Assembly: GCA_018830005.1 (NCBI GenBank)
Contig: JAHJTE010000001.1
Span: 642,287 to 706,286, forward strand
From: Candidatus Omnitrophota bacterium
GTDB taxonomy: Bacteria; Omnitrophota; Gorgyraeia; JAHJTE01
Reading direction: 5' to 3'
Length of the DNA stretch: 64,000 nt
Below the pieces are notes generated by a model that saw only the letters and a list, made by a program, of their open reading frames with translations, searched no databases and was not told where the DNA came from. The translations under genes and the position numbers were made by a program. This document shows, piece after piece, positions 9,806-27,976 of this stretch (positions are counted from its first letter, which is position 1; every line of letters begins with the position of its first letter).

Positions 9806-10741
9806 ATGGCTTCTACAAAATATATCATAACTATTGATCTGGGTGGCACTAATGTAAAATTGGCGCTTTTGCGAAGACGATCGAAACAGATTATCCGCCT
9901 TTGCAAATTTTCAACCAAAAATTTCCCCACCAAGAGACTGCTATTCAATAAGCTAGTTGAGGCAATCAAGGATATTATCGCCAACTCTCGCCTTAAGTAT
10001 TCTGATATTTTAGGCATAGGCATAGGCGTTCCTGGTCCTGTAGATAAACAAAGAGGCTTGGTTTATTATTTTCCTAATATTCCCGGCTGGAAGAATGTGG
10101 CTTTGAAGAAGATGTTAGAGGCCAGATTAAAATTCCCTGTTTTCGTAGATAATGATGTCAATCTAATGGCCTTAGCAGAACTTAAATTTGGCGCAGCTAA
10201 AAATGCGCGAAATTGTATATGTCTTACCTTGGGTACAGGTGTGGGTGGGGCCCTAATTACAAACAGTTCAGTTTTTCGTGGAAGTGCATCTGTTGCCGGA
10301 GAGATTGGCCATATTCCCATTAGTCTAAAAGGGCCTGTCTGTAATTGTGGCGGCAGAGGTTGCCTTGAGCGTTTTATCGGAAATAAGATAATCTTAGCCC
10401 AGGCAAGGCGGATATTTGGAAAGTCAATAAGCCTTGAGCAATTATCTAAGCTAGCAAGAGGCGGAAACAGGAAAGCGCTTCTTATCTGGAAGGATATGGC
10501 GCAAAAGTTGGGTATAGCTCTGAGCGGTTTAATAAATGTTTTCAACCCTGAGCTTATTGTTATCGGCGGTGGCTTGGCTAATGCAGGAGATATTCTTTTT
10601 AGCAAAGTGCGCCAGACGGTTAAAGAAAGGGCGATGCGGCCTCATAGCGAAGTAGTAAAGATTGTAAGGGCGAGCTTAGGAGTAAACGCTGGCTCTATTG
10701 GAGCGAGCGTTCTTGTAGAAACAGAATTAGCTGGAAGTTAG
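9806..10741 (+). CDS. ROK-family sugar kinase (glucokinase-like)
   Basis: ATP-binding DLGGTN, GEIGH, and CxCGxxGC zinc motif (CNCGGRGC) typical of ROK kinases. Confidence 0.8.
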   Translation: MASTKYIITIDLGGTNVKLALLRRRSKQIIRLCKFSTKNFPTKRLLFNKLVEAIKDIIANSRLKYSDILGIGIGVPGPVDKQRGLVYYFPNIPGWKNVALKKMLEARLKFPVFVDNDVNLMALAELKFGAAKNARNCICLTLGTGVGGALITNSSVFRGSASVAGEIGHIPISLKGPVCNCGGRGCLERFIGNKIILAQARRIFGKSISLEQLSKLARGGNRKALLIWKDMAQKLGIALSGLINVFNPELIVIGGGLANAGDILFSKVRQTVKERAMRPHSEVVKIVRASLGVNAGSIGASVLVETELAGS

Positions 10742-10751
10742 CAGCATTTTT

Positions 10752-12845
10752 ATGCAAAGATATACATTTTTTATTTTATTTTTTTTATTCATAATTCTTC
10801 CTTCCTACAGTTTTTCCCAGGAAGCGAAAATTCCCATAGTAGTTGATGGGGAGCACGTAGAGTTTTTTAATGATGAGAAAAAGATTATAGCAGAGGGCAA
10901 TGTTGTTATTAATTATAAAGGCACAAATTTAGTTGCCGATAAGGTTGTTGTTTATTTAGAGAAGAACGATGTGATTGCCCAAGGAAATGTAAGATTAGAA
11001 TATGAAAAAGGAATCTTAGAAGGAGACAAAATAGTTTATAATTTTGAGAAAAATACCGGGACAATTATAAATGCAAACATAGAATCTCCGCCTTTTTATT
11101 CTAAGGGCCCATTTTCGAAAAAAATAAGTGACAGGCAATTGATTATGCGCCGCAGCTATATAACGACTTGCGATTTAGATCATCCTCATTGGCGAGTCGT
11201 TTCAAAGCGATTACTGATTTTTCCAGAGGACAGGATAATAGCTGAGGATGCCTCTTTGTTTATTGGCAATTGGCCGATTATTACATTGCCTAGGTATGTT
11301 CAAGTATTGAATGATAGAAGGCCGCGGGTAACGGTTATACCTGGTAAGGATAAAGAATGGGGTCTTTATTTGTTGACTGCTTGGCGATTTTATCTTACTA
11401 AATATGCCAGCGGAAGGCTACATCTTGATTATAGAGAAAGAAAGGACTCTGCAAGCGGAGTAGATCTTCACTATGAATCAGAAGGATTCGGAGAGGGGCT
11501 ATTGCGTACCTATTATATGCACGAGAGGAATATACAGACAAGGCATCTCTACAATGAACCAAGGGACACAGAAGAAAAAGAACGCTTCCGCGTTGAATAC
11601 AGACATAAATGGCAGATAGATCCCAGAAGAACTGTTTTGTGGCAGTACAATAAGCTTAAAGACGCAGAATTCTTGAAGGACTATTTTGAACGCGAACATG
11701 AGATAGTTTCAGATCCTGCTACGTATATGCAGTTTACCGAAGCGCAAGACCTCTACTCATTAAATTTTTTGATGGAAAAACACATTAACGATTTCGCGAC
11801 TACTATAGAAAAATTGCCCGAGGTAAGTTTAGAGACGGTTAATTTCAAATTAGGAGAAAGCAGGTTATATTTTAAAAGCGATAATAAATTTTCTAACCTT
11901 AGAAAAGAGGAGCCGGGAGGCGCTGCTTTTGATGATATCGTAAATAGACTCGACACCTTTAATAACTTTACCTATCCGACTAAGTTAGGCTTTTTGTATG
12001 TCTCTCCTTATGCAGGAAGCCGCAGTACATATTATTCGGAAGATTCAAATGAGAACAAAGATGTATTACGGGGTATCTTCTATAGCGGTGTTGATATTTC
12101 AACTCGTTTTTTCAAGGTCTTTGATGTAAAGGGAGAATTTTTGGGCGCTGAGATTAATGGGCTGCGCCATATTATTAACCCCATTGTAGAATATTCTTAT
12201 ATCCATCAGCCTACAGTTAGTAATTCTCACTTACACAACTTTGATAGCATTGATTCCATTAGTAAGCAAAATTCAGCTGCTATTGCCCTAGAGAATAAAT
12301 TACAGACTAAACGAGGCAGCACAAGCATTGATTTAATAAGCCATATTTTAAGCTCTTCTTATTTCTTCGAAGATAAAGGCTTGGGGGGGTATTTTTCCGA
12401 TACGCTAAGCTCTTATCTGGAACTTAGGCCCCTAGAAGGTCTGCGTTTTGACATTGACACAGATTACGACAGGAAAAGAGGTCAGGTAATAACTAATGGC
12501 ACTGACTTTTATATTGACAAAGGCGATAAATTCTCTTTAGGCGTTGGCCATCGTTATCAAAGGGATGAAGACAACCAATTTACTTTTGATGTTGCTTATC
12601 GCGTTAATCCAAAGTGGAAGTTTAGAGTTTATGAACGTCTTGATTTTACGGGTGGCGGGCTTAGTGAACAGCAGTATACGATAAGCCGGGATTTGCACTG
12701 TTGGCTGATGGATGTTATCTATAGTGTGGATAGAGAAAAAGGTGAATCTATTTGGTTCGGGTTTAAGATTAAGGCATTTCCAGAGCTTGGTTTTGAGTTT
12801 GATACTAGTTATCATGAGCCCAAGGCAGGCTCACAAAGTTATTAA
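10752..12845 (+). CDS. lptD: LptD/OstA-like LPS-assembly outer membrane protein
   Basis: Signal peptide, N-terminal OstA-like fold region, long C-terminal region rich in aromatic/alternating residues ending in an aromatic-rich tail; 697 aa. Confidence 0.6.
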   Translation: MQRYTFFILFFLFIILPSYSFSQEAKIPIVVDGEHVEFFNDEKKIIAEGNVVINYKGTNLVADKVVVYLEKNDVIAQGNVRLEYEKGILEGDKIVYNFEKNTGTIINANIESPPFYSKGPFSKKISDRQLIMRRSYITTCDLDHPHWRVVSKRLLIFPEDRIIAEDASLFIGNWPIITLPRYVQVLNDRRPRVTVIPGKDKEWGLYLLTAWRFYLTKYASGRLHLDYRERKDSASGVDLHYESEGFGEGLLRTYYMHERNIQTRHLYNEPRDTEEKERFRVEYRHKWQIDPRRTVLWQYNKLKDAEFLKDYFEREHEIVSDPATYMQFTEAQDLYSLNFLMEKHINDFATTIEKLPEVSLETVNFKLGESRLYFKSDNKFSNLRKEEPGGAAFDDIVNRLDTFNNFTYPTKLGFLYVSPYAGSRSTYYSEDSNENKDVLRGIFYSGVDISTRFFKVFDVKGEFLGAEINGLRHIINPIVEYSYIHQPTVSNSHLHNFDSIDSISKQNSAAIALENKLQTKRGSTSIDLISHILSSSYFFEDKGLGGYFSDTLSSYLELRPLEGLRFDIDTDYDRKRGQVITNGTDFYIDKGDKFSLGVGHRYQRDEDNQFTFDVAYRVNPKWKFRVYERLDFTGGGLSEQQYTISRDLHCWLMDVIYSVDREKGESIWFGFKIKAFPELGFEFDTSYHEPKAGSQSY

Positions 12846-22643: not shown

Positions 22644-24323
22644 ATGAAGTGGTGCATTCGAGAAGTTGATAAACAATTATTATCTTATTTTTCAAATGAG
22701 ATAAATTTGCATCCTTTAATTGCAACCCTTCTTATAAATCGTAATATTAAGGATAAAGATGAGGCTGAAATTTTTCTCGCAAGCCAGATTTCTCAACTAT
22801 CTGACCCGCACAAGATCAAGGGTGTAGATAAGGCGCTAGAGAGGATCAAGATTGCTAAGGAAAAAGCAGAAAAGGTATTTATATTCGGAGATTATGACGT
22901 TGATGGGATTTCTGCCTGTGCACTTTTAGAATCTAGTCTTAAAAAGTTAGGTATTGAGACTGTTGTTTATTTACCGCACCGTATGGAAGAAGGTTATGGT
23001 CTCAATATGAAGGCTGTTAATGAGGCCAAGGCATTAAAGGCAAGGCTTTTCATAAGCGTTGATTGTGGTATAGGCAGCTTTGAAGAAATCGAGAAACTCA
23101 ATAGTTACAAAATTGATTCAATAATCATTGATCACCATCAGCCTAAATCGAAAAAATTACCAAAGGCAGTTGCCATAATAAATCCGAAGGTTAATAAAAA
23201 TGAGGCTAATCTTTCGAGTCTGGCTGCTGTTGGACTGGTTTTTAAGCTGGTTCAGGCGCTTTTTGATTCTAATCTAGAGGAGGATTTAGACTTCGTTGCC
23301 TTAGGAACAATTTGTGATGTAGTTCCTCTTATTGGAGAAAATCGTATTTTTGTAAAGGAAGGCTTAAAGCGAATCTCACAAACAAAAAGAGTCGGTATTC
23401 GTGCATTAAAAGAAGTTGCAGGTATTAAAGACAGGAAGATAACCGCAGGACTAATAGGATTTACATTGGGGCCGCGACTTAATGCCTCAGGAAGGATTGA
23501 TTCAGCGCAAAAGTCTTTAAAACTCCTGACTTGTTCTGACGAAGCTGAAGCAATGCTTCTTGCCAAAGGCCTCAATGAAGCAAACAGGAAGAGACAGCGA
23601 ATTGAAGATAAAATTCTGAAAGAGGCATTGACCAAGGTAGAGCGGGAAGTAAATTTTAAAGAGCATTCGGTAATTGTAGTTGGAGGTGATGATTGGCATC
23701 CTGGTGTGGTTGGAATTATTGCCTCAAAACTTGCCAATAGATATTACAGGCCAGCCTTTGTATTAGGTTTGGAGACTGGGGTCTATCGCGGTTCTGGTAG
23801 GTCAATAAACAATTTCCATTTATTCGAGGCCCTTAGCGAGTGCGACTCTTTATTAGAAAGCTATGGAGGTCATCGCGGGGCAGCTGGATTAAAGCTTCTT
23901 GAAAAAGATTTGGAGGAATTTAGGAAATCAATTAATGCTGTTGCGAAGGCAAAATTAAAACCAGAAGATTTAGTCCCAATATTAAATATAGATGCAGAGG
24001 TTGATCTGTCCCTCTGGCAGGATAGGCAGCTTATAGACAGAATAGAGGAATTTGCGCCTTTTGGAATAGGGAATCCGCGTCCTGTATTTTGTTCCAGGAA
24101 TCTTTTTCTTAAAAGCGCTCCTCTTGCTATAGGTAAGAGGTCTTTGCGTTTCTGGGTAAGCGATGGAAGCTTTACGGCTAAGGCTATTGGTTTTGGGATG
24201 GCTGAGTATGCCAATCTATTGAATGAGAATTCTCGTATTGACTTGGCTTATTCTGTATCGATAGATACCTGGGGAGAACCTGTTGTGCAATTAGAGATAA
24301 AGGCCATAAAAGAGAGGATTTAG
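22644..24323 (+). CDS. recJ: Single-stranded-DNA-specific exonuclease RecJ
   Basis: DHH motifs (FGDYDVDG, IIDHHQ) and DHHA1 region; 559 aa. Confidence 0.93.
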   Translation: MKWCIREVDKQLLSYFSNEINLHPLIATLLINRNIKDKDEAEIFLASQISQLSDPHKIKGVDKALERIKIAKEKAEKVFIFGDYDVDGISACALLESSLKKLGIETVVYLPHRMEEGYGLNMKAVNEAKALKARLFISVDCGIGSFEEIEKLNSYKIDSIIIDHHQPKSKKLPKAVAIINPKVNKNEANLSSLAAVGLVFKLVQALFDSNLEEDLDFVALGTICDVVPLIGENRIFVKEGLKRISQTKRVGIRALKEVAGIKDRKITAGLIGFTLGPRLNASGRIDSAQKSLKLLTCSDEAEAMLLAKGLNEANRKRQRIEDKILKEALTKVEREVNFKEHSVIVVGGDDWHPGVVGIIASKLANRYYRPAFVLGLETGVYRGSGRSINNFHLFEALSECDSLLESYGGHRGAAGLKLLEKDLEEFRKSINAVAKAKLKPEDLVPILNIDAEVDLSLWQDRQLIDRIEEFAPFGIGNPRPVFCSRNLFLKSAPLAIGKRSLRFWVSDGSFTAKAIGFGMAEYANLLNENSRIDLAYSVSIDTWGEPVVQLEIKAIKERI

Positions 24324-24547
24324 GCCTTTGTAATTTTGCCCGCCTTTATACATTTAACGCAGACACAGGCTTTTTTACGTCTATTATTACTGATAATATT
24401 TATAAGCTGCAGATTAGGTAAGAATACGCGTTTTGTTATTCCTGTTATCTTTTGTCCAGCGCCGCCTTTTTTCTTGGCCATACCGCGTCTTACAATCTTA
24501 TTGCCTCTCATGGTGCCTTTACCGCAGACTGAACATACTTTTTTCAT
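24320..24547 (-). CDS. rpmB: 50S ribosomal protein L28
   Basis: 75 aa; MKKVCSVCGK...RRGMAKKKGG...RVFLPNLQ pattern of L28; converges on recJ with a 4-nt overlap. Confidence 0.85.
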   Translation of the reverse strand: MKKVCSVCGKGTMRGNKIVRRGMAKKKGGAGQKITGITKRVFLPNLQLINIISNNRRKKACVCVKCIKAGKITKA

Positions 24548-24592: not shown

Positions 24593-24621
24593 TTGAAAAT
24601 CACTTTTTGTCAAGGTAAAAT
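24593..24621 (+). promoter_or_regulatory. Putative sigma70-type promoter upstream of the helicase-nuclease gene (TTGAAA-N17-TAAAAT)
   Basis: Hexamers read directly from sequence, 17-nt spacer, about 38 nt upstream of the ATG at 24659. Confidence 0.4.
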
Positions 24622-24658: not shown

Positions 24659-27571
24659 ATGTCTGGAGATATCCTAAAAGACTTAAACGAAGAACAAAGG
24701 CAATCTGTTGTCTATATTGAGGGTCCGCTTTTGATAATTGCCGGTGCAGGAACAGGTAAGACCAGTGTTATAACGCGTAAGATTGCTTACTTGATAAAGA
24801 ATGGCCTTGCTAGCCAAGATGAAATACTTGCCTTAACCTTTACTGATCGGGCAGCAGCAGAGATGACTGAAAGAGTAGATATCCTTGTCCCTTATGGTTA
24901 TACGGATATTTGGATATCGACCTTTCATGCCTTTGGAGATAAGATCTTGCGTGAAAATGCTGTAGAGATTGGCCTCAATCCTGACTTTAAGGTTTTGACG
25001 CGGCCTGAGGCAGCGGTTTTGGTGCGGCAGCATCTTTTTGATTTTCCCCTAGATTATTTGCGGCCGGCAAGTGATCCTACTAAATTTATCAACGATATAT
25101 TGAGGGTATTTTCTCGTTTGCGAGACGAAGATGTATCAGTCGAGGAATATAAACAATTCCTCCAAAAGTTGACTAAAGGGCTTAAGGATAATGAGGATGA
25201 CCCAGCGCATGAATTTCATCGTCTCCATAAAGAACTCTCAGGCTGTTTTGCGACTTACCTTAATATCTTGCATAAAGAAGGAAAGGTTGATTTTGCAAAT
25301 CAGTTCTATTTGGCATTAGCAATGCTTCGAAAATACAAGAAGATCTTGGAATTCTATCAGAATAAATTTAAGTATATTCTTATTGATGAATTTCAGGATA
25401 CAAATTATGCCCAGTTTCAGTTAGTTAAATTATTGGCAGAAAAACACAAGAATATAACTGTTGTTGCTGATGATGATCAATCCATATATAGATTTCGGGG
25501 AGCTGCCTACAGCAATATCTTGAGTTTTGACCAAACCTATCCTGATGCCAAACGCATAACATTAATCCGCAATTACCGCTCTCAGCAGGCAATTCTTGAT
25601 TCTGCTTATAGGCTTATTCAATTTAATAATCCTGACAGATTTGAAGTAAAATCTAAGATTGACAAGCGCCTCATCGGCAGAGAGAAAGAGAAGGAGGTTA
25701 CATATCTGCATTTTGACCGCCATTCTAACGAGGCTGATCAGGTTGCGAAGATTATTAAAGAAAAAGTAAGAGACGCTAAGTATTCATATGATGATATCGC
25801 AATCCTTGTACGTTCTAACAATGATGCCGATGAATTTATTTCAAGTTTGAATATGGTAGGTATACCTTGGCGATTTAGCGGCAATCAAGGATTGTATTCC
25901 CGGTCAGAAGTAAAACTCTGTATTTCATTTTTAAGATTTATGGCAAATATCTCTGATTCTTTAAGCTTGTATTATTTGGCAGCAAGCGCGATCTATAAAA
26001 TACCTACAATAGAGCTGGGTTATCTTAATAGCTTTGCGCGCAGACGTAATTATGATCTCTTCTGGTGTCTAAGGCATTTTAATGAAATAGAAGAGTTGAG
26101 AGAGAAGGTGGCCGGGGCAGCTGAATTAATCCAAAAATTTACTGAGGAGCTGGAGAAATTTCTTGCTTGTAGCTTAGAAGTCAGCACAGGCAGACTCCTG
26201 TATCTTTTCCTGACCCAGACTAAATTCCTAAAAGATTTAGTCAAGCATCCATCTGTAGCCAATGAGGAAAAGGTAGAAAATCTAGCTAGGTTTTTTGAGA
26301 TTGTGAAGGAATTTGAAGGCGTTGCCCATGAGGATAGGGTAGTTGCGTTTATTGAATATTTGGATATGCTCATACGCAGCGGCGATGATCCAGCTACAGT
26401 TGAGGCAGATCTTGATATACCGGCAGTTAACATCTCGACAGTTCATAAGGCAAAGGGTTTAGAGTTTAAAGTTGTATTTATGGTGGGTCTAGTCAACGGG
26501 CGCTTCCCCTGGCCTAAACGCCGTAATCCTTTAGAGTTGGCAGAGGAATTGATCAAAGAGGTCTTACCTGAAGGTGATTTTCATATTCAGGAGGAACGCA
26601 GGTTATTCTATGTTGGAATGACACGGGCTAAAGACGAGCTCATATTTACCAACGCCTTAGATTACGGCGGAATGAGGCTGCGCAAACCCAGCGGTTTTAT
26701 CTTTGAGGCCTTAGGCAAAGAGAAAAAACAAATTCAGGCTAAAATTAAATCCAGCGCCTTGGAATCTATCCATAGGTTTAAGGAGGAGACACAAGGAAAA
26801 AAGACAAAACAGACACCTAAAAAGAGCGATTCAGAAATATTGCGTTTAAGCTTTTATCAGATTGATGATTATTTGACCTGTCCTCTAAAATATAAGTATG
26901 TGCATATTTTGCATGTGCCGATTTTAACGCATCACACTGTAGTATATGGCAAGGCATTACATGATGCAGTAGCAAAATATCTACAGTTCAAGATCAAAAA
27001 TAATACGATTCCCTTAAAAGAACTTATCGACACCTTTGATGCCTCTTTTTCTGATGAGGGTTTCTTAAGCAAGGAGCACCGCCAGAATCGCAAGGCCTTA
27101 GCGCATGAGGCCTTAAAGAGATTTTATAAACAGGAGGAGTCAGCTGAAAGGCCGCCTACATTTGTAGAGAAGGATTTTTCTTTTACACTGGATAATAATA
27201 GGATCGTTGGTCGCTGGGATAGAGTAGATTTTATCTCTAAGCAAGAGGCAGTAATAATTGACTACAAATCTTCTCATATAAACAAACAAAAAGATGCTGA
27301 CCGAAAGGCTAAACTGAGCTTACAGCTTGCGATTTATGCCATGGCCTTTAATGAGCTATTTGGATTCTTTCCAAAGCAAACAGAGTTACATTTTTTGGAA
27401 TCTTCCTTGGTTGGCAGAGATAGTAAGGACGAGAAGGCGTTTAAAAAGGCGCATGAGGAGATTGCTATTGCATCAGCTGGTATAAGAAGCGGAAAATTCG
27501 ATGCCAATCCTAGTTATATGGCATGTAATTATTGCGCTTACAGAGAGATCTGCAATTTTGCTAAGGTCTGA
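24659..27571 (+). CDS. UvrD/PcrA-type SF1 helicase fused to a C-terminal PD-(D/E)xK (Cas4/AddB-like) nuclease with four-Cys cluster
   Basis: Helicase motifs I (AGAGTGKT), II (DEFQDT), III (DDDQSIYRFRGA), V, VI (YVGMTRA); C-terminus has GRWDRVD, IIDYKS, QLAIY and Cys at CPLKY plus CNYCAYREIC. Confidence 0.85.
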   Translation: MSGDILKDLNEEQRQSVVYIEGPLLIIAGAGTGKTSVITRKIAYLIKNGLASQDEILALTFTDRAAAEMTERVDILVPYGYTDIWISTFHAFGDKILRENAVEIGLNPDFKVLTRPEAAVLVRQHLFDFPLDYLRPASDPTKFINDILRVFSRLRDEDVSVEEYKQFLQKLTKGLKDNEDDPAHEFHRLHKELSGCFATYLNILHKEGKVDFANQFYLALAMLRKYKKILEFYQNKFKYILIDEFQDTNYAQFQLVKLLAEKHKNITVVADDDQSIYRFRGAAYSNILSFDQTYPDAKRITLIRNYRSQQAILDSAYRLIQFNNPDRFEVKSKIDKRLIGREKEKEVTYLHFDRHSNEADQVAKIIKEKVRDAKYSYDDIAILVRSNNDADEFISSLNMVGIPWRFSGNQGLYSRSEVKLCISFLRFMANISDSLSLYYLAASAIYKIPTIELGYLNSFARRRNYDLFWCLRHFNEIEELREKVAGAAELIQKFTEELEKFLACSLEVSTGRLLYLFLTQTKFLKDLVKHPSVANEEKVENLARFFEIVKEFEGVAHEDRVVAFIEYLDMLIRSGDDPATVEADLDIPAVNISTVHKAKGLEFKVVFMVGLVNGRFPWPKRRNPLELAEELIKEVLPEGDFHIQEERRLFYVGMTRAKDELIFTNALDYGGMRLRKPSGFIFEALGKEKKQIQAKIKSSALESIHRFKEETQGKKTKQTPKKSDSEILRLSFYQIDDYLTCPLKYKYVHILHVPILTHHTVVYGKALHDAVAKYLQFKIKNNTIPLKELIDTFDASFSDEGFLSKEHRQNRKALAHEALKRFYKQEESAERPPTFVEKDFSFTLDNNRIVGRWDRVDFISKQEAVIIDYKSSHINKQKDADRKAKLSLQLAIYAMAFNELFGFFPKQTELHFLESSLVGRDSKDEKAFKKAHEEIAIASAGIRSGKFDANPSYMACNYCAYREICNFAKV

Positions 27572-27706: not shown

Positions 27707-27976
27707 TTGTCGCTGCTTAAGGATAATAAGAAAAAACTAATCGAAAAATTTAAACTGCATTCTGCTGATACGGGTTCTTCGCAGGTTCAGATTGCCATTC
27801 TTACAGAAAGGATTAGCTTTTTGAGTGAGCATTTGAAGCGTCATAAAAAAGACCATAATTCGCGAAGAGGACTTCTGAAACTAGTAAGCAGACGTCGTCG
27901 CCTATTGGACTATCTTAAGAAGGATGCACCACGCAGATATGAAGAAATAATAGATAAATTGAAATTGCGTAAATAA
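27707..27976 (+). CDS. rpsO: 30S ribosomal protein S15
   Basis: 89 aa; [15 protein letters not shown]...[15 protein letters not shown] is the S15 signature; TTG start. Confidence 0.93.

Follow-up and report, generated by a model that had tools for sequence, protein, structure and literature searches.

A candidate single-chain DNA-repair enzyme of Omnitrophota: a PcrA/UvrD-type helicase with a C-terminal iron-staple-type nuclease

The window analysed here is a stretch of 64,000 nucleotides (64 kb) from contig JAHJTE010000001.1 of a Candidatus Omnitrophota bacterium. It contains an open reading frame (ORF) at 24659..27571 (+) for a 970-aa protein, in which a PcrA/UvrD-type helicase motor of superfamily 1A (SF1A) is followed by a PD-(D/E)XK nuclease with four Cys residues at iron–sulfur (Fe–S) positions. 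The best explanation is a stand-alone chromosomal helicase–nuclease for DNA repair and recombination, a reading that we believe and doubt in about equal measure. The bacterial end-resection helicase–nucleases studied so far are multi-subunit enzymes, and the Fe–S nuclease, where present, is located on the subunit with the dead motor. Here, a conserved and vertically inherited single gene pairs a live-looking motor with an Fe–S-type nuclease, and its product is a candidate single-chain end-resection enzyme. If the protein works by itself, it would reveal the first step of recombinational repair in broad and poorly explored regions of the bacterial tree, and it would offer a minimal system for the coupling of a motor to an iron-staple nuclease. 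Should it prove to be no more than a redundant paralogue of UvrD, the result is an ordinary refinement of annotation, from 'ATP-dependent helicase' to 'UvrD-like helicase / Fe-S PD-(D/E)XK nuclease'.

The complete coding sequence starts with ATG and ends with the stop codon at 27569-27571, and the opposite strand is interrupted by numerous stop codons. The protein is 100% identical to the NCBI entry P0001, 'ATP-dependent helicase [Candidatus Omnitrophica bacterium]'. Three Pfam domains are present in the order UvrD-helicase (PF00580, residues 9–295, E = 5e-74, 249.8 bits with a cut-off of 23), UvrD_C (PF13361, residues 300–665, E = 2e-53, 182.4 bits with a cut-off of 25.6) and PDDEXK_1 (PF12705, residues 729–966, E = 3e-32, 113 bits, full model length). 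The first two exceed their gathering thresholds and stand in the order of an SF1A helicase. This domain evidence is far beyond chance, and the ORF is a real gene. The single-chain architecture proposed in the initial annotation is borne out by the three-domain order, and all the motifs quoted there are present.

The motor core covers residues 1–690 (24659..26728, +). Motifs I, II, III, IV, V and VI were all located with their catalytic residues intact, and they are invariant or nearly so across the family. Walker A (motif I, AGAGTGKT, residues 28–35) is found at 24740..24763 (+) and is invariant in alignments A1 and A4. Motif II (Walker B, DEFQDT, residues 243–248) is found at 25385..25402 (+); D243, E244, Q246, D247 and T248 are invariant in both alignments, and F245 is invariant in A1. 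Motif III (DDDQSIYRFRGA, residues 271–282) is found at 25469..25504 (+), and the motifs NYRS, HKAKGLEF and YVGMTRA are found at 25571-25582, 26444-26467 and 26609-26629 (all +). The coordinates of motifs II and III and of these three motifs were verified. The SF1A set is complete, as initially annotated, and the motor looks intact. It would be expected to translocate and unwind in the 3′-to-5′ direction in an ATP-dependent manner.

UvrD, Rep and PcrA carry Trp at the 'ratchet pawl' position of motif III, for which the E. coli sequences were also used. The corresponding residue of the window protein, at the position shared by UvrD, Rep, PcrA and AdnB, is F279 (25493-25495). This Phe is kept across the family alignments A1, A2 and A4, and is a family hallmark. 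As AdnB W325F keeps 90% of the wild-type resection velocity (PMC8789073), the Phe is compatible with an active motor. In some homologs, motif III is split between DDDQ(S/C) and IY.FRGA by an intein of about 360 residues (Pfam PF14890, sometimes also PF01079). The insertion site was mapped in P0017, P0018, P0036, P0044, P0140 and P0221 to the identical point, residues 275/276 (window 25481/25484), and these six proteins are only 37–60% identical to the window protein. P0347, P0348, P0351, P0368 and P0379 were recognised by the intein Pfam signature that they share. The window copy has no intein.

The closest relatives of the motor are PcrA, Rep and UvrD. The NCBIfam scores of the 970-aa protein are 448 bits for PcrA, 377 for Rep and 348–355 for UvrD, followed by 193 for AddA and 145 for RecB. 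The equivalog cut-offs are missed in each of the three leading cases (911 for PcrA, 951 for Rep and 1144 for UvrD; tests with TIGR01073 and TIGR01075). According to the PDB sequence search with the full protein, PcrA (1pjr) is matched at 2e-93 collinearly over residues 2–683, ahead of AdnB (6e-40) and AddA (1e-24). The C-terminal tail of PcrA and UvrD is their RNA-polymerase-binding region. Alignments to these proteins end at about residue 683, and residues 691–970 consist of a linker and PDDEXK_1, with nothing that matches the tail.

The nuclease domain covers residues 729–966 (26843..27556, +) and is assigned by PF12705 and by structure prediction with Foldseek to the iron-staple class of the RecB-family PD-(D/E)XK nucleases. 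Its catalytic core is D854 and D868-Y-K870 (D...DxK; 27218..27268, +), invariant or at least 90% conserved, with D854 in the motif GRWDRVD (27209-27229, +) and D868–K870 in DYK (27260-27268, +); the coordinates of both motifs were verified. The QxxxY motif is QLAIY (Q889–Y893; 27323..27337, +) and is at least 90% conserved. The residues D854, D868-x-K870 and Q889-x3-Y893 constitute the PD-(D/E)XK signature and are aligned with the catalytic segment of AdnA and AdnB.

The iron staple of AddB and Dna2 is defined by one N-terminal and three C-terminal Cys residues around the nuclease fold (PMC3378879), and the same 1+3 arrangement occurs in Cas4-family enzymes and in AdnAB (PMC12094033). The window protein has one Cys on the N-terminal side of the nuclease fold and three on the C-terminal side. 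The former is C741 (26879..26881, +), which starts the motif CPLKY (verified at 26879-26893, +). The latter are in CNYCAYREIC, that is C956-x2-C959-x5-C965 (27524..27553, +). All four are candidate ligands and are invariant in the alignments. A metal cluster, probably 4Fe–4S, would be bound by C741, C956, C959 and C965.

The relationship to the known Fe–S nucleases was found by profile and by structure. A single-sequence PDB search with the nuclease domain was nearly empty (best E = 0.31). The family profile matched the AdnB nuclease core (9e-10), AdnA (1.5e-7), Cas4 SSO0001 (0.019) and AddB residues 1080–1133 (0.12), and its stretch 'CeyCaykeiCp' was aligned onto the Cys triad 'CANCPVRSSCP' of AdnA. 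The Cas4 models score below their cut-offs (Pfam Cas_Cas4, PF01930, 21.7 bits, just below 22.7; TIGR00372, 42.3 bits versus 65). A domain-only AlphaFold2 (AF2) model of the nuclease has a predicted local distance difference test score (pLDDT) of 96.0 and a predicted template-modelling score (pTM) of 0.91. Foldseek ranks its matches in the order AdnA (E = 6e-10, TM 0.74–0.76), ACE1, AddB (3u44_B, 4.6e-7), RecE, Dna2 (9e-6), Cas4, the dead nuclease of RecC, and Exo5. The cluster-less nucleases rank lower (AddA 1.6e-4, RecB 5.9e-3, AdnB 1.5e-2). According to the model, the nuclease is structurally of the Fe–S class and is nearest to AdnA. The initial annotation had placed the four Cys residues at Fe–S positions, and the profile alignment of the triad and the fold matches agree with this, the catalytic residues being kept.

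The nuclease is joined to helicase domain 2A by a Lys/Ser/Glu-rich linker (residues 691–728; 26729..26842, +), the consensus of which is poorly conserved in family alignments. In the full-length AF2 model, residues 693–722 have pLDDT below 50, and the pTM of the model is 0.47. The tether, as modelled, is flexible and about 35 residues long. The full-length model was rejected as a guide to the docking of the nuclease on account of this pTM and the disordered linker.

Both modules are conserved together. Among 115 homologs of 55–74% identity, C741, C956, C959 and C965 are 100% conserved, and the four Cys residues are still invariant in an alignment of 37 sequences reaching down to 29% identity in the nuclease domain. 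In the alignments of this depth, conservation is 90% or more for D854, D868, K870, Q889 and Y893 and for the motor motifs. Because the motor motifs, the catalytic residues and the Cys residues are all conserved, both the motor and the nuclease are under purifying selection, in a family that spans at least 12 phyla.

The family is large. At E ≤ 1e-10, 7,999 proteins in the database match the 970-aa protein. Two protein searches gave more than 7,700 matches, and all of the 120 matches listed in each share the set PF00580/PF13361/PF12705. Thousands of copies carry the generic name 'ATP-dependent helicase'; the JGI name for family members is 'DNA helicase-2/ATP-dependent DNA helicase PcrA'. At least 12 bacterial phyla have proteins of equal length and architecture, and the named members are from Elusimicrobiota, Acidobacteriota/Aminicenantes, Aerophobetes, KSB1, Calditrichaeota, Nitrospinota, Nitrospirota, Armatimonadota, Deltaproteobacteria, a Firmicutes metagenome-assembled genome (MAG) and bins labelled Patescibacteria. 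A search with the nuclease domain found 3,546 representative relatives at E ≤ 1e-3 (167 at E ≤ 1e-30), of which the dominant form has 950–1000 residues with the nuclease at the C-terminus. One protein among these matches, P0257 (1297 aa), has five separate stretches that match the nuclease domain (the best at residues 57–306, 24% identity), and perhaps consists of several Cas4-like nuclease domains in tandem.

AddAB, AdnAB and RecBCD normally have the genes for their subunits side by side. No AddB-, AdnA- or RecC-like partner was identified beside the gene in the 64-kb window, among 80 Omnitrophota loci or among 22 loci of other phyla. The 22 loci are nine named loci and thirteen further metagenome loci, the latter being the approximately 13 usable family loci from a scan of 80 metagenome loci, most of which contain ordinary PcrA/UvrD genes. 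The initial annotation, made from the window, had stated that no partner gene is present, and the statement now extends to about 100 neighbourhoods. A phmmer search of the window and the 80 Omnitrophota loci for a paralog or partner gave 81 hits, all of which are the orthologue itself, with no second UvrD-like gene.

In Omnitrophota the gene has a largely conserved position. The order argS-recJ-rpmB(−)-gene-rpsO-pnp-ftsK-rodZ-miaB, with a variable insert of 0–7.5 kb before rpsO, is kept in most of the 80 loci, in which the protein identity is 53–74%. In the window the order is trpBA, an M16 peptidase gene, argS, recJ (22644-24323, +), rpmB (approximately 24330-24547, −), the helicase–nuclease gene, rpsO (27707-27976), pnp, ftsK, rodZ and a miaB-like gene. 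Housekeeping genes make up both the ten neighbours within about 7 kb and the twenty larger ORFs annotated further out. The housekeeping flanks named in the initial annotation (recJ, rpmB, rpsO-pnp) were found at the coordinates given. A partner hidden between the gene and rpsO was considered and rejected, as the gap of 0–7.5 kb holds small genes of housekeeping type and never a helicase or nuclease gene.

An insert of four to five small genes recurs in this gap in many Omnitrophota, with products of about 245 (sometimes 257), then 354, 218 and 137 residues. It was observed in L010, L016, L018, L021, L022, L024, L041, L046, L047, L053, L056, L057, L067, L069 and others, and the window is without it. 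By eye, the products resemble PlsC-like acyltransferase, AsmA-like and ArfB/RF-1-domain proteins. In the MAG JAZDEW01, two full-length copies of the helicase–nuclease gene are present (L063, 1196-4123; L065, 8744-11665). They are 82.6% identical, and the motor, catalytic and Cys motifs are intact in both. An active/inactive pair was rejected for these reasons, and a bin that mixes two related populations is more likely than a pair of paralogs.

Outside Omnitrophota, several neighbours are repair genes. In the Armatimonadota locus L089 (6199-14825), a same-strand run contains cinA, ligT, recA, recX, the helicase–nuclease gene, a WYL-domain gene, an sbcD-like gene (Metallophos) and an sbcC-like gene (SMC_N/AAA_23), and this run is a compact cluster of recombination genes. 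The gene rmuC (PF02646) is located directly downstream in three unrelated lineages (Deltaproteobacteria, Elusimicrobia and an unclassified bacterium), at L090 10909-12111, L091 11091-12167 and L092 9943-10980, with gaps of 13, 147 and 5 bp. The helicase–nuclease gene and rmuC may be a functional gene pair; rmuC was not found in the window or the 80 Omnitrophota loci. A radC gene is present within 7 kb in four loci (L090, L091, L185 and L189), and the Elusimicrobia locus has xseAB and radC upstream. In L093, a JGI contig, uvrC and ogt are directly upstream. In L094 (Nitrospinota), a SprT-like gene overlaps the start of the helicase–nuclease gene. The Nitrospirota copies are located among restriction-modification and toxin-antitoxin genes.

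Large neighbouring ORFs were inspected as AddB-like candidates and rejected; they encode a PAS histidine kinase, a TPR/FHA protein kinase, an alpha-2-macroglobulin-like protein, a GPI-domain protein and a 1,200-aa protein. The last is encoded in L183 (2168-5770) and ends 8 bp before the helicase–nuclease gene. It is Ala/Glu-rich and Cys-free, has no Pfam hit and is not AddB- or RecC-like.

The helicase–nuclease architecture is not new, although the initial annotation had implied novelty. The fusion of a UvrD-like helicase to a Cas4-like nuclease was described computationally in 2017 as forming the largest pfam12705 branch (Hudaiberdiev et al., 2017, PMC5704561), and thousands of entries carry it under generic names. 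According to that study, UvrD-Cas4 fusions occur in many bacteria and in mesophilic archaea, either beside Type III restriction-modification or Dcm/Vsr genes or as stand-alone genes, and the roles predicted were defence or ancillary repair, with a RecB/AddB-like role for the nuclease (PMC5704561). The window protein shares their architecture, a UvrD-like SF1 helicase with a pfam12705 nuclease. Their Type III Mod/Res or Dcm/Vsr context is absent from the window and the Omnitrophota loci, and was seen only in distant plasmid relatives. In the Cas4 tree of the same study, the Omnitrophica leaves are labelled 'NA' and not Cas4-UvrD.

Plasmid fusions were recovered from Athalassotoga (beside a methyltransferase gene and a DEAD-box helicase-family gene, Type III Mod/Res-like), Priestia (Dcm, Vsr, MspI), Methanomethylovorans and Agrobacterium. 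They are 23–26% identical to the Omnitrophota protein in the nuclease and 25–30% in the helicase (130–254 bits), whereas the members of about 970 aa from other phyla reach 40–49% in the helicase. A neighbour-joining tree of the helicase core was calculated (623 columns, 100 bootstraps). The chromosomal family of about 970 aa forms one clade with short branches (93% bootstrap), and a separate clade (85%) unites E. coli UvrD and Rep with viral helicase-only proteins. The fusions from plasmids and viruses are spread over several more groups, and the support at the deep nodes of the tree is 62% or less. By this tree, the family is a clade apart from the plasmid and viral fusions that were sampled. 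No close relative was found among 2.9 million viral contigs; the best hit is 32% identical, and most hits are without the nuclease.

Comparison with the characterised enzymes shows which features are combined here. In AdnAB, the Fe–S cluster is located on AdnA, the motor-like domain of which does not drive translocation, and the active motor AdnB has a cluster-less nuclease (PMC13000450). Like both subunits, the window protein has a UvrD-like SF1A module and, at the C-terminus of that chain, a RecB-type nuclease. AdnA is its best structural match in the nuclease, with a Cys triad that aligns with C956/C959/C965, and AdnB is the best sequence match in the catalytic core. However, AdnAB is an obligate heterodimer, whereas the window protein has an intact motor and an Fe–S-type nuclease on one chain, and its helicase is much nearer to PcrA than to AdnB (2e-93 versus 6e-40). 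The initial annotation had contrasted AddA, with its cluster-less nuclease, and AddB, with its cysteines and degenerate helicase; the contrast is accurate and extends to AdnAB (PMC13000450). AddB shares the iron-staple arrangement and the fold (3u44_B), but its helicase-like domain is inactive and the nuclease of AddA is without the cluster. The window protein scores 193 bits against the cut-off of 708 for AddA, and 61 against 904 for AddB.

RecB likewise has an SF1A motor whose C-terminal PD-(D/E)XK nuclease is flexibly tethered; RecB, however, is without Fe–S Cys residues and requires RecC and RecD, and its score is 145 bits against a cut-off of 696. PcrA, UvrD and Rep are the best motor matches with all motifs, and the window protein differs from them in its scores below the equivalog cut-offs, its own clade, its Phe in place of Trp, and the linker and Fe–S-type nuclease at the C-terminus. 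Dna2 and the bacterial Bad have an SF1 helicase and an iron-staple nuclease on a single polypeptide (PMC7430649), as the window protein appears to have, and Dna2 is a significant fold match. In these enzymes, however, the nuclease is N-terminal and the helicase is of the SF1B type with 5′-to-3′ polarity (PMC7430649), whereas the helicase of the window protein is SF1A and N-terminal.

On the stand-alone reading, the following reaction would be catalysed. The PcrA/UvrD-type SF1A motor would hydrolyse ATP, track 3′-to-5′ on one strand and open the duplex. The displaced 5′-ended strand, or a 5′ flap, would be threaded into and cut by the tethered C-terminal nuclease, which would be stapled by the cluster. 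The product would be a 3′ single-stranded tail or a gap that RecA, presumably loaded by RecFOR-type mediators, could use. The enzyme would act without an AddB- or RecC-type partner, as a monomer or homo-oligomer. Cluster binding, the polarity, the strand cut, the oligomeric state and the pathway, end resection at double-strand breaks or the processing of gaps, forks and flaps, are all proposals. Dna2 and Exo5 are likewise invoked for a 5′ preference of the nuclease. The preference is suggested mainly because AddB and AdnA are the 5′-strand nucleases of their complexes (PMC13000450; PMC3378879), and Cas4 is described as a 5′-to-3′ exonuclease (PMC3466216). The term 'minimal end-resection enzyme' of the initial annotation was too strong, and end resection is kept here as a conditional role.

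Several points weigh against the stand-alone repair reading. The C-terminal nucleases of RecB, AddA and AdnB, which sit on an active motor chain as the present one does, cut the 3′ strand and not the 5′ strand; those of AddA and AdnB are the cluster-less nucleases for the 3′ strand in their complexes (PMC13000450; PMC3378879). The inter-domain geometry is not reliably predicted, so that the full-length model, with its low pTM, cannot decide between the 5′ and the 3′ strand. The adjacency of recJ may be incidental, since the whole block is syntenic. The neighbourhoods outside Omnitrophota vary, and many are uninformative (L095, L096 and most metagenome loci); the thirteen further metagenome loci add only two radC genes and one distant rmuC. 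In the literature, no experimentally characterised member of the family was found, only the computational account of Hudaiberdiev et al. (2017), and a search on RecBCD in Omnitrophota found nothing. Finally, the protein could be redundant with RecBCD, AddAB or AdnAB, or could be the UvrD of its lineage.

The last possibility is the strongest rival, and it overlaps with the stand-alone repair reading rather than excluding it. The protein would be the UvrD/PcrA orthologue of the lineage, with an added nuclease that replaces the RNA-polymerase-binding tail. As an accessory helicase of general purpose, it would work in nucleotide excision repair, mismatch repair, the removal of RecA filaments and replication–transcription conflicts, with end resection not its main job. 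We regard this as possible but distinctly short of probable. The helicase is nearer to PcrA, Rep and UvrD (448, 377 and 348–355 bits; PcrA 1pjr at 2e-93) than to AddA (193) or RecB (145), and the JGI name of the family is that of PcrA. No second UvrD-like gene was found in any neighbourhood examined, and uvrC-ogt upstream in L093 and recA-recX upstream in L089 fit an orthologue equally well. The usual hosts of inteins are essential proteins of replication and repair, and the inteins in motif III point in the same direction. The scores, however, are below the cut-offs, in the case of PcrA only about half of 911, and far below 1144 for UvrD; the family clade (93%) is separate from that of E. coli UvrD and Rep (85%). 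The PcrA match ends at residue 683, with no counterpart of the C-terminal tail. The nuclease, with invariant Cys residues and catalytic residues at least 90% conserved, is central to what the protein does and not a decoration. A stronger form of the stand-alone reading was also considered, in which the protein is a fourth type of bacterial machine for double-strand-break end resection beside RecBCD, AddAB and AdnAB. A single polypeptide, as a monomer or homodimer, would feed the displaced 5′ strand from its active PcrA-like motor to its own Fe–S nuclease, and would be the sole such enzyme in Omnitrophota and a dozen mostly uncultured phyla, from which the classical complexes would be absent. 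This form is improbable in our judgement. The helicase–nuclease might also resemble the single-gene state from which AdnAB-like two-subunit enzymes arose by duplication.

It is quite unlikely that the protein is one subunit of an AddAB- or AdnAB-like machine whose AddB-, AdnA- or RecC-like partner is encoded elsewhere. The characterised bacterial resection machines RecBCD, AddAB and AdnAB are all hetero-oligomers (PMC3378879; PMC13000450), the nuclease domain is matched best in the PDB sequence searches by AdnB and AdnA, and the evidence covers neighbourhoods and not whole genomes. Against this, no helicase-, nuclease- or AddB/RecC-like gene adjoins the gene in the 81 Omnitrophota loci or the 22 others, where the few large genes nearby are unrelated, and the NCBIfam scores for AddA, AddB and RecB are far below the cut-offs. 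In the known two-subunit systems the Fe–S nuclease sits on the dead-motor chain, but here an intact motor carries it. The two copies in JAZDEW01, 82.6% identical and both intact, are not an active/degenerate pair. An anti-phage or anti-plasmid effector, either a UvrD-Cas4 fusion of the Hudaiberdiev type or a helicase like GajB of Gabija that degrades invading DNA, is very unlikely. The architecture is common to fusions in a defence context (Athalassotoga, Priestia, Methanomethylovorans), the Nitrospirota copies have restriction-modification and toxin-antitoxin genes around them, and solo Cas4-family enzymes can act in immunity (PMC12094033). In the PADLOC search, only generic GajB and DRT helicase models matched, GajB at 8e-95 and in the helicase region only, and a defence assignment on this basis was rejected. 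GajA is an OLD-family ATPase/TOPRIM nuclease, and no GajA-like gene is present among the annotated neighbours in the window. The position in the core genome is conserved across Omnitrophota, all the annotated genes of the window are housekeeping genes, and several neighbours in other phyla are repair genes. The helicase is 25–30% identical to those of the plasmid fusions versus 40–49% within the family, in a separate clade, and no close relative is found on viral contigs. The initial annotation had preferred housekeeping to defence, and a housekeeping role is indeed the better supported of the two, by synteny, the generic nature of the PADLOC matches and the viral search. No association with cas1/cas2 or CRISPR was seen among the annotated neighbours in the window, where CRISPR arrays were not specifically searched for.

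The gene may have its own promoter. A promoter-like site, TTGAAA-17-TAAAAT, is located 38 nt 5′ of the ATG (24593..24621, +), and a divergent promoter-like site for rpmB (24613-24586, −) overlaps it. Another precedes rpsO. All three are weak consensus matches, and 17 such sites were found in the region versus 10.3 expected. These sites and the gene arrangement are consistent with a monocistronic gene diverging from rpmB.

The genes farther away in the window include dnaK/dnaJ, sugar-nucleotide enzyme genes, riboflavin genes, ligA, cca, ftsI and murE/F. A 697-aa ORF at 10752-12845 (+) has no Pfam match at E ≤ 1e-5. It lies between a 311-aa ORF (9806-10741) and UDP-glucose dehydrogenase-like genes.

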